Position numbers: made by a program
In this document: in pieces, positions 6,001-9,000 of the stretch
Numbering within the stretch: the first letter of the stretch is position 1
Layout of the letters: every line of letters starts with the position of its first letter
Virus record (IMG/VR): IMGVR_UViG_2529293042_000013
Length of the DNA stretch: 22,815 bases
Strand: one strand, 5' to 3'
Origin: a virus
Lineage: Duplodnaviria > Heunggongvirae > Uroviricota > Caudoviricetes

Positions 6001-9000
6001 GTATATGGGGAGGATACTCTTTTAATGGATAGCAGCCATTAATTATCGACTCTCTGAGTTGTTCAATCGTGCTAAATGCAGATCTTTCTCTTTCAAAATT
6101 ATCATGTCCAACACACATTCTATATATGGTTAATCCTGCCTGATATATGTCATATGTGAAATTATAATCATTTGTTGATAAAGAAAATATTCCGGTGGCA
6201 CATGAAAATGATATCCAAACTCAGGCGCAGCTCTCGATTCCTCATTGACTAACTGAGATAATCCAAAGTCAGATAGCATGGCCTCATTTCTGTTTGATAT
6301 CATAATGTTATTAGGTTTTATATCAAAATGCATAAGACCTTTTGAGTGTATATGATAAAGTCCACTTAAAAATTGAATGGAATACCGTATTATCTCCCTG
6401 CTTGTAAGATTATTTTTTTCATTAATTGGTTTAGCGAACCATTATGATAAAATGGCATGGCTATATAGATATTGCTCTCACATTGAGCAGCATACTGAAC
6501 TTGCACAATATTTGGATGTGCATGTTTATAGAGAAGCCTTGCTTCATTAAAGTAGTCGTCGTGGTTAGTGTTTTCTTTTTTTCTATTTCTTTAATCACCA
6601 AGTCATGAGCTAGGTGTCTGTCATGAGCCAGATATACTTTTGAAAAACAACCCTGTTCTTCTAGATCACTAATCCATTCGAATTCTACATCAGCTCTTTT
6701 GTATGGAGTTAGCATCCCCTTACCTCCGCAGATAGTGCAGCCAAAACAGCTTCATTTGTTTCAGTTGTAAAACCAGAATTATCGATTCCATTTATATTGC
6801 GGTGTGACTTCAATATTTCTTTATACTCGATCTCTGTTAGGTTCAATGATGATTTCATGCCAGATTTTCTAATAGTGTAATATTTTCTTACATCACTGCT
6901 TGAAAATGCTTCTTGAATAACAGCTTCTATATAAAGGCGGTCAATGCTAAGATTATCAGAGTTTGATTCAGTAACGCGTATGGCAGCTAATTCAACATTA
7001 TATAAATTAAGAATGTCGAGGATGTTATTTCTCACATACTTTAATTTTTCTGGTGTGTCTAAGGTCGAAGGTATTTTAATAACATCAACACATTTGAGTG
7101 CAGACTCATTAGTGCAATATACAACAAAAGATGTAACTTTGGGCGCCGCTCTAACACCTAGTATTCTCATTTTTTATATCCTATTTTAGAATCAGGCCGC
7201 ATCTCTGCGACCATCCATCATCCAAACGTCTCTTCACTCATCCGAAGAAGCAGCAATCCGGGTTAGCACGCACAAGCTCAAGCGCATCAGTCAGCGAAAG
7301 TTCAGTACTGTACTGATGCCATTTCATATCCTTCCGCATCCAATAGATTTTCCATCTATCCAGAGAACGTATGTACTTGATTCTTGCTGATGGCAGGATG
7401 TTTGTTTCACCTGGATTGCCCTGCCACACGGGGCGCTGTTCGCCGATATCTATCGTTTGGTCATTGATGCTATAAACAATATCCAGTTCATTGCGGATAT
7501 GTTCAGGCGGCCTTATGCTTTCAATGAATTGGTGAACTTCTTTTTTACTGCTTGATATTCAAGGTCATTGAACGCCATCTATCCTCCTTACCCAAACGTC
7601 TCTTCAGGCCACTGGTTACCAGCTATGTGACGATGAAGTCACGAACTTTTCAGCCACTCCCTTGCCTCGATGTCATCCAGATGGCGAGATTGCTTCAGAA
7701 TACCAGCTACATACTCCACCTTTGCTACTTGATGATAAGGCAACGTTATAGGCCTGTGATCCTGGTTAATGCTTGTAAATTGGTATTCTCCATCTCTGTC
7801 ATAGCCAAGAACCTTAATCATGTTGTGTCCTTCAACGGTTCTGACAAACACCTCATCACCCGGGAATACTTTGGTGTTAGGCTCAATGAGTACATATTCT
7901 CCTGATTTTATTCTGGGCCACATGCTGTCTCCTTTCACACGAAGACCAAAGGCATCTGGATCATCGCTATAAATTTTGAGCCACCCATCGCGCTCTTCGG
8001 TCATCTCGATGGCACCATCAACACCAAGAATTGCCTCACCAACCACGCGCACTAACCCTTTTTTAATTTGCCAACAAATGAAAGAGTATCTTCATCATTC
8101 GCTCCATTTAACGAAGTGCCGTGCTGAAGCCAAACAACATCAACGTTTAGAAATTTCGCAAGCGCATTCATTTTTTCCTGACGCGGTAAAGACTCAGCAT
8201 TAAACCATTTGCTAACGCCTTTGGACGAAAGAGAAAGGGCACGGGCTATAGCCATTCCCCTACCATGTTCATCAAGACCAGCTTCTTTACAGGCTTGCGC
8301 TAGCCGCTGGGCGAATTCTTTGCGCACTTTTTCATTCTGAACCATGAGTACGATACTAAAGCACTTGCAAAAACTTTCAGTTCAACCATAATACGTACTG
8401 AAAGTACGAAAAAGGATATTCCTATGCAAAATCTTGATGAGCCGATTAAAGGTGTCGGCATCCCTGAAGTTGCGAAGGCTTGTGGAGTTAGCGAAAGGGC
8501 TGTCTATAAGTGGCTCAAAAACGGCTTCCTCCCTAAGACTGAGTTTTTTGGGAAAACTAAATACGCATCAAAAATCGAAGAGATTTCTGGTGGCAAATAT
8601 CAAGCAAGCGAAATGCTTGAAATAAGCAAAAAGAACCTTCTGGCTGCATAAGTAACACCGCTATTTTCACAATGGACATTCGTCCTACGTCGCTGACAAA
8701 GCGAGTCCCAATATATCTGACCAACTAAGGCCATATGCGTTTCCACGCATACCTTTCAACTAACTATTCACTATTGGAAATCTTAAGAAATGGAACAAAC
8801 AAGTTACAGCAAACTATCCCAGCGTGACGTTGATCGCGCAGAAACTGATTTACTCATCAACCTGTCAACGCTTACCCAGCGTGGTCTGGCAAAGATGATT
8901 GGCTGTCATGAATCGAAGATAAGCAGAACGGACTGGAGGTTTATTGCTTCGGTCTTGTGTGCTTTCGGAATGGCATCAGACATCAGTCCGATTAGCAGGG

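Follow-up and report, generated by a model that had tools for sequence, protein, structure and literature searches.

Short boundary ('linker') sequences at the junctions of lambdoid phage modules belong to the modular theory of Susskind and Botstein (Clark et al. 2001, summarised in PMC3029335). The cI-N region, which forms the P_RM operon, is regarded as a 'hotspot of mosaic diversity' (PMC8585504, Owen et al., citing Degnan et al. 2007), and its occupants include rexAB in lambda, stk in 933W, hex in 434 and bstA in BTP1 (PMC8585504, PMC3564112). In lysogens, the stk gene of 933W is transcribed together with cI (PMC3564112, citing Tyler 2004 and Friedman 2011), and HK97 exclusion has been tied to stk (as cited in PMC3564112). 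Here we analyzed a stretch of 22,815 nucleotides from a virus of the Caudoviricetes (IMG/VR record IMGVR_UViG_2529293042_000013), which we call the window. Positions ~5100-9050 represent the immunity region of a 933W-type Shiga-toxin phage; the sequence from 6600 to 8400 is 99.9% identical to phage 933W, and all genes treated here lie on the - strand. In this region a 15-mer occurs twice, on either side of a small DUF3024 gene located behind the cI repressor gene. Both copies are very probably duplicated relics of the cI tail that act as a joint, based on short homology, of the slot for accessory and defence genes in the cI-N region, into which the DUF3024 gene plugs as a cassette. In the literature covered here, to which neither Degnan et al. 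2007 nor Tyler et al. 2004 belongs, we found no description of this joint or of its duplication around a cassette.

The 15-mer, CCAAACGTCTCTTCA, is present in two exact copies at 7222-7236 and 7592-7606, both on the + strand, and no further copy with up to two mismatches was found on either strand of the window. Reading along the - strand, the cI stop TGA (7641-7639) is followed by the proximal copy (7606-7592), by G plus TAA (7591-7588) and by the Shine-Dalgarno sequence AAGGAGG (7589-7583). Then come the ATG of the DUF3024 gene (7578-7576), its stop TGA (7240-7238), a single G (7237) and the distal copy (7236-7222), with A plus TGA (7221-7218) directly behind it. The 355 bp between the copies contain the DUF3024 gene with its ribosome-binding site and nothing else, and the repeat period is 370 bp in the window and 371 bp in 933W. 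An earlier note on this sequence had placed one copy 1 nt behind the stop of the gene and the other between the cI stop and the ribosome-binding site, and this geometry proved exact.

To judge whether the two copies could be a coincidence without evolutionary meaning, we turned to simulation. Exact direct repeats of 15 nt or more appeared anywhere in the window in 221 of 1000 Markov simulations, i.e. in ~22% of simulated 22.8-kb windows, which speaks for coincidence. When the two copies had to lie within 400 nt, first-order Markov simulations of the window produced such a repeat 8 times in 1000 (0.8%), and from the simulations alone chance is an unlikely source of the repeat. The question was settled by the comparative data, which refute a chance origin: both copies keep a downstream stop of the cI frame, the hairpin of the cI terminator follows the distal copy, and the distal copy has homologous counterparts in the Salmonella P22-like phage ST160, in VT2-Sakai and in Erwinia. 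We therefore regard coincidence as practically out of the question.

The identity of the 15-mer was revealed by its coding (-) strand, which reads T GAA GAG ACG TTT GG and corresponds to the last codons (P)EETFG. The cI gene of lambda (L004) ends with ...CAG TGG CCT GAA GAG ACG TTT GGC TGA, that is QWPEETFG and a stop, and full-text literature matches to the 15-mer were limited to reverse primers used to clone lambda cI. When IMG/VR was scanned for exact matches, the matches listed comprised 124 copies in 120 contigs; as this set was selected by exact match, frequencies within it are not population estimates. In 106 of the 124 copies the context is ...(Q)WPEETFG with an immediate stop (TGA in 70, TAA in 33 and TAG in 3), and most of these 106 close open reading frames (ORFs) of 201-259 aa, which is the size of a repressor. 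A degenerate scan for sequences encoding WPEETFG found the canonical nucleotides in ~80 of the 120 listed contigs, together with 16 synonymous variants. The cI tail is thus conserved as protein, with the canonical DNA version dominant across many cI classes. When genome contigs (596 Gb) were scanned for the 15-mer, almost all of the matches listed were chance matches in unrelated phyla.

In cI of the 933W type the real stop lies 16 codons upstream of the 15-mer (the box in what follows), and the box remains in frame behind it (LHRHIAGNQWPEETFG, then a stop). Of the copies listed from IMG/VR, 14 have the same in-frame tail, LHRHIAGNQWPEETFG, and 2 others have the variant LHRHIADSQWPEETFG. Within 7607-7641 the sequence reads as relics of other cI C-termini, namely ...SSSHSW plus stop in the +1 frame and then ...NQWPEETFG plus stop in frame with cI; HSW plus stop is the true cI C-terminus in the SH2026-type class. 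Such stacked tail relics suggest that cI alleles were replaced more than once in front of an older tail. In the window, the proximal copy is thus what remains, as non-coding sequence, of a lambda-type cI tail. The distal copy reads GAA GAG ACG TTT GGA TGA, i.e. EETFG and a stop, and is a second relic of the cI tail. In lambda the order is reversed, with its own QWPEETFG and stop followed by the relic IGKVFWSAHS and stop (L004, ~2190-2231).

Next, the flanks of the IMG/VR copies were clustered into upstream and downstream sequence classes. The junctions are combinatorial: at the 15-mer, 16 upstream classes meet 35 downstream classes that are unrelated, with only the 15-23-mer in common. The lambda-type cI has 18 different downstream partners and the 933W-type cI has 8, and at least two upstream partners were found for 13 of the downstream classes. 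In the flank listing, the stop codon and the last base of the Gly codon belong with the downstream module, so that the junction falls at the 3′ edge of the box. Megablast matches of an empty-site query to E. coli genomes begin 4-11 nt before the box (query 140-147; box at 151). The first genes of the downstream modules encode RexA, BstA (two types), PD-Lambda-2_B, PDC-M63A (DUF6932) and PDC-M04A (DUF3800), as well as KilA-N, P63C, ClpP/SDH-like proteases, ParA-like ATPases, the NYN protein and the RuvC-like/Stk module. Smaller cassettes were also observed. An 87-bp cassette for a 23-aa hydrophobic peptide (MREYLIVGVVTLLSVVAIVLMVA) is flanked by two boxes in L059 (7551-7652), L102, L116, L121 and L123, and L107 (- strand orientation, 9400-9800) carries three boxes and two genes for hydrophobic peptides, this one of 23 aa and another of 32 aa, with the cI terminator behind them. 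Bracketing by boxes thus extends to cassettes other than DUF3024.

We then compared relatives with and without the gene. Contig L048 shows a lambda-type cI, a box, the DUF3024 gene, a second box and a module with a 162-aa ORF. In L087, with the same cI type, and in L117, with another cI, there is one box, no gene and the same downstream flank as in L048, and the alignment shows that the indel comprises the gene plus one box, i.e. exactly one repeat period. In L045 the 933W-type cI is followed by one box and a complete terminator with no gene; in L128 (E. coli QA-1986 83) a repressor, a box variant, the hairpin, the RuvC-like gene and stk follow each other without DUF3024; and in L291 (E. coli WCHEC040047) the distal-side flank is joined directly to the tail of another cI allele. 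One-repeat relatives lacking the gene, which the earlier note had proposed to look for, therefore exist with the same flanks (alignment with L087/L117, L128, L291). DUF3024 alleles with at least 98% identity were found with cI of the 933W, lambda and SH2026 types and with four downstream modules. At least 186 of 5,426 complete E. coli genomes carry the cassette beside the RuvC-like gene, and in a search of E. coli genomes with the empty-site query every full-coverage match in a sample of 40 out of 657 rows consisted of two pieces with the gene between them.

One crossover is located to the distal copy. From cI across the proximal box to the end of DUF3024, the Stx2a phage EH0505 and ~15 sister phages run collinear with 933W; precisely where the distal copy has its left edge, they change over to an NYN module. 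The NYN flank, including the 4 nt beside the box, abuts lambda-type cI tails in L069, L070, L108 and L114. Since nothing but the box is in common at this junction, the exchange occurred within the box or at its edge. In EH0505 (L003 2021-2878) and its sister phages a 285-aa NYN-domain protein with weak PADLOC matches to HEC-09 and NYN replaces RuvC-like/stk, and an ORF for an insertion sequence (IS)-type transposase lies further downstream of the NYN gene in Stx2a phages of this type.

The earlier note had suggested a cassette acquired or excisable by short-homology recombination. In substance this view holds, as there are gene-less variants with one copy and homology breaks at the copies; what it had missed is that the repeat is a cI tail. 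The same note had also considered that the repeat might be coincidental coding sequence around a gene without presence/absence polymorphism. Relic coding sequence is indeed what the repeat is, and the polymorphism of the gene is real.

Based on these observations, we propose the following course of events. The cI-tail sequence (...W P E E T F G, stop) would serve as the common border of a slot downstream of cI that is co-transcribed in lysogens. Since the same 15-23 nt stand at this border in many cI alleles and many modules, a crossover within it is possible. General or phage-encoded homologous recombination between co-resident phages or prophages would cross over in the border sequence and thereby re-assort cI alleles and downstream modules. 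The DUF3024 cassette starts just behind one cI tail with its own ribosome-binding site, and its end directly precedes a second cI tail that has the old cI terminator's hairpin behind it. Bounded by cI tails in this way, it would fit between any cI and any cI-abutting module with neither disturbed, and its two borders could recombine independently. From the junctions we infer that the exchanges were driven by homology rather than being selected illegitimate joins, and the distal copy would have no function beyond that of a joint.

The box-gene-box architecture is old. ST160 carries an intact DUF3024 gene (86% aa identity) with a distal box matching at 10 of 15 positions and a broken proximal copy. 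In Erwinia aphidicola the gene is intact as well (60% aa identity), and a distal box with 12 of 15 matches is followed by the hairpin (16/18). The VT2-Sakai allele is frameshifted (82% nt identity), with a distal box of 10/15 and then a complete terminator. The cI relic is 2-4 nt longer (GCC or GGCC) in ST160 and Erwinia. This length would fit one ancestral event in which the cassette 3′ end was joined to the last ~20 nt of the cI of another phage, followed by a 2-nt loss in the 933W lineage, and such an old join would be the source of the original duplication.

Several points weigh against this reading. First, a 39-mer designed to seed a match solely on the precise deletion junction did not detect a precise deletion with the 933W-type cI in any of the 5,426 complete E. 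coli genomes; the only match was the same junction with the other cI allele (L291). The absence of precise losses indicates that the repeats do not drive frequent excision, and the excisable cassette of the earlier note found no support here. Second, 15 bp is short for an exchange of the RecA or Red type, and some of the junctions could be illegitimate joins preserved by selection; recombination within the box is deduced from junction structure, for example from the NYN flank, which is joined to a cI tail in some phages and to the distal copy in others. Third, the distal box and hairpin of Erwinia (12/15 and 16/18) are far better kept than the synonymous sites of DUF3024 (41%), which would also fit purifying selection on a cis-element.

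The last point leads to the possibility that the 15-mer is a duplicated cis-element kept by selection on the P_RM transcript or on DNA, such as a protein or small RNA site, a processing site or a stop/restart adaptor. Besides the good preservation in Erwinia relative to neighbouring synonymous sites, conservation at the nucleotide level across cI alleles (canonical in most of the listed WPEETFG contigs, see above) and retention of the box as non-coding sequence in the classes of 933W and SH2026 are in line with such an element. Moreover, stops are supplied in two frames, and in the small-peptide cassettes the next ATG overlaps the stop. However, the gene of ST160 is intact despite its decayed boxes, which indicates that the gene does not need exact copies; decay of the distal copy is seen in VT2-Sakai too; and the successful EH0505 Stx2a lineage carries 2 substitutions in the proximal copy. 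The RNA around the proximal copy showed no significant fold (z = 0.14), the only real fold around the boxes being the hairpin behind the distal one, and an Rfam covariance-model search of 6900-7900 gave no match at E <= 1. The contexts of the copies differ as well, with a ribosome-binding site next to one and a hairpin next to the other. As for Erwinia, the conservation coincides with a step in protein divergence from 933W (60% aa identity for DUF3024, 86% for the RuvC-like protein and 77% for stk), which we take as a further exchange at the distal border, with the distal box moving together with the downstream module. Taken together, a selected cis-element appears unlikely, and the duplicated protein- or RNA-binding site offered by the earlier note does not agree with the decay in ST160, the substitutions in EH0505 and the lack of a fold or an Rfam match. 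On the Erwinia aphidicola chromosome (L289 3001-5130) the order DUF3024, RuvC-like, stk and small ORF is kept without an adjacent cI, which points either to a joint function of the genes or to an order restored by distal-box exchange.

We also considered a dedicated site-specific or transposition-like insertion, i.e. an integron-type cassette or a target-site duplication, with the RuvC-like protein as the candidate enzyme. The precise framing of a 371-bp unit by direct repeats, the similar framing of several different cassettes and the position of a gene annotated as RuvC-like beside the distal copy would all agree with it. However, most of the 35 downstream modules found at the junction lack a RuvC-like gene, and the RuvC-like annotation itself has no Pfam support. 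The cassette ends lack inverted repeats, the box is neither palindromic nor able to form an attC-like fold, and the repeat is ordinary cI coding sequence. Annotation and Pfam showed no recombinase gene between cI and the terminator. A transposon target-site duplication was rejected, as the 355 bp between the copies contain neither terminal inverted repeats nor a transposase; an integron attC site was rejected for its lack of a significant fold (the z-score given above), of flanking inverted repeats and of a nearby recombinase. We consider dedicated insertion highly improbable, and duplicated cI tails acting as a joint remain our preferred explanation.

The DUF3024 product matches PF11225 with E = 1.2e-30 (106.5 bits against a cutoff of 24.9) and, over its full length, the PADLOC defence candidate PDC-S43 with E = 4.4e-41. 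Its AlphaFold2 model has a pLDDT (predicted local distance difference test) score of 91.8, and homologues with 58-97% identity occur across Enterobacterales. Promoter-like sites were not above the shuffled expectation, and none was found in the 60 nt upstream of the gene. Expression is thus most likely driven from the cI transcript, by read-through from P_RM and the strong Shine-Dalgarno sequence of the gene itself. The hairpin at 7213-7196 follows the distal copy, and in gene-less phages (L045, L033, VT2-Sakai) it stands directly behind cI with a run of U6-7. With its U-run, this hairpin is the intrinsic terminator of cI, of which the window carries a version without the U-run. The diverged DUF3024 of VT2-Sakai (L127 ~2530-2870) shares its T-run frameshift with L006, L007, L024, L106 and L119. 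The frameshift is present in all five IMG/VR contigs with the VT2-Sakai-type allele and also in the alignment with VT2-Sakai; this allele, unannotated in VT2-Sakai, may be a real pseudogene.

The features of the locus are collected in Table 1. Compared with 933W over 5103-8760, the window has no substitutions and five single-base deletions, all in A/T homopolymers, at 6183, 6412 and 6575 (three frameshifts in stk), at 7540 in a T-run that breaks the DUF3024 gene, and at 8058 in a T-run that splits cI. With this pattern, the frameshifts in stk, DUF3024 and cI are most likely homopolymer sequencing artefacts rather than signs of pseudogenisation. A 54-aa ORF lies between stk and the terminator at 5506-5485. 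Homology to 933W fades from ~8760, and the replication module differs from that of 933W. It encodes a 258-aa HTH_36 protein (9252-10028, +) with a short Gly/Ala-rich amino acid repeat, GGAGAARGGAGAALGGGAGAA, probably the origin of several further short direct repeats in the DNA of the window, and a 968-aa Toprim/AAA_25 primase-helicase (10139-13045, +) interrupted by an intein (Hom_end-associated Hint plus LAGLIDADG domain).

Table 1. Features of the cI-to-stk region of the window, with the evidence for each.
Feature	Positions	Strand	Evidence
cI repressor gene, 933W type (HTH_3 + Peptidase_S24)	7639..8345	-	99.9% identity to 933W cI; Pfam matches on the 933W copy
Non-coding stretch behind the 933W cI stop	7607..7638	-	Direct reading of the sequence
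Proximal 15-mer	7592..7606	-	Exact match; mRNA reading UGAAGAGACGUUUGG
Shine-Dalgarno AAGGAGG of the DUF3024 gene	7583..7589	-	Direct reading; kept in every lineage with the DUF3024 cassette
DUF3024 gene, 113 aa in 933W	7238..7578	-	Pfam PF11225 and PADLOC PDC-S43
Distal 15-mer, junction to the downstream module	7222..7236	-	Exact match; homology break of EH0505
Hairpin GGUCGCAGAGAUGCGGCC	7196..7213	-	Fold results; no U-run in the window
RuvC-like gene (RefSeq annotation), 153 aa, first of the downstream kinase module	6709..7170	-	Annotation only, no Pfam match
stk Ser/Thr-Tyr kinase gene	5672..6715	-	Pfam Pkinase E = 2e-46; PADLOC mad6 and PD-T4-6
Intrinsic terminator ending the cI-to-stk lysogenic operon	5485..5506	-	Terminator scan; tM of the 933W annotation

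Finally, we compared the locus with the known systems. It resembles the lambdoid boundary sequences in that a short sequence common to otherwise unrelated neighbours lies at a gene boundary and at homology breakpoints, and homologous recombination inside it would re-assort modules. Pairwise homology starts or ends at the 15-mer in the comparison of 933W with EH0505 and in that of L048 with L087/L117. In contrast to the described cases, the sequence here is the coding tail of an essential gene, cI, which is repeated inside the slot and forms the joint at both ends of the cassette; most mosaic junctions of phages lack such a boundary sequence. The cI-N hotspot shares with our locus the location, the co-transcription with cI in lysogens and the kind of content, and RexA, BstA, Stk, PD-Lambda-2 and PADLOC (PDC) candidates are all joined at the 15-mer here.

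Two further systems share some of these traits. Morons, reportedly described by Juhala et al. in 2000, are likewise extra genes expressed from the prophage between genes that are adjacent in related phages, and DUF3024 is such an extra gene (alignment, L045, L128, L291). It differs from them in having no detectable promoter of its own, expression relying on P_RM read-through and its own Shine-Dalgarno sequence, and in that the 'terminator' of the cassette is the displaced hairpin of the cI terminator, without a U-run in 933W. Integron cassettes resemble the arrangement as promoterless single-gene cassettes stacked behind a strong promoter with a repeated sequence between them. Unlike integrons, the locus lacks an integrase and a folded attC-like site, its repeat is a coding relic, and exchange presumably proceeds by general homologous recombination. 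A bolder version would see the cI-tail box as a maintained adaptor of the lambdoid lysogenic operon that confers evolvability, that is, as a universal joint of ~20 nt recurring between stacked promoterless cassettes (DUF3024, small hydrophobic peptides, defence genes) that ends the upstream frame, couples translation of the next gene and enables cassettes to be inserted or exchanged between any pair of lambdoid phages, in an integrase-free, integron-like array of defence cassettes. We regard this extension as rather unlikely.

The locus provides a sequence-defined case of mosaicism by short boundary sequences at the best-known accessory and defence slot of lambdoid phages, where a gene with the joint at both ends can stack between the repressor gene and any module. 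Part of the diversity of the immunity region among Shiga-toxin phages is explained in this way, since 933W, EH0505, SH2026 and VT2-Sakai differ by exchanges at the joints. The 15-23-mer can also serve as a simple anchor to harvest defence candidates expressed in lysogeny from Enterobacterales prophages; the 120 listed contigs already yielded RexA, BstA, PD-Lambda-2, Stk, several PADLOC candidates and many unknown genes. Compared with what has been described, the locus is a clear example of known phage mosaicism, with boundary sequences at a known hotspot, rather than a new mechanism, and it is only in the integron-like stacking of cassettes that it might go further.

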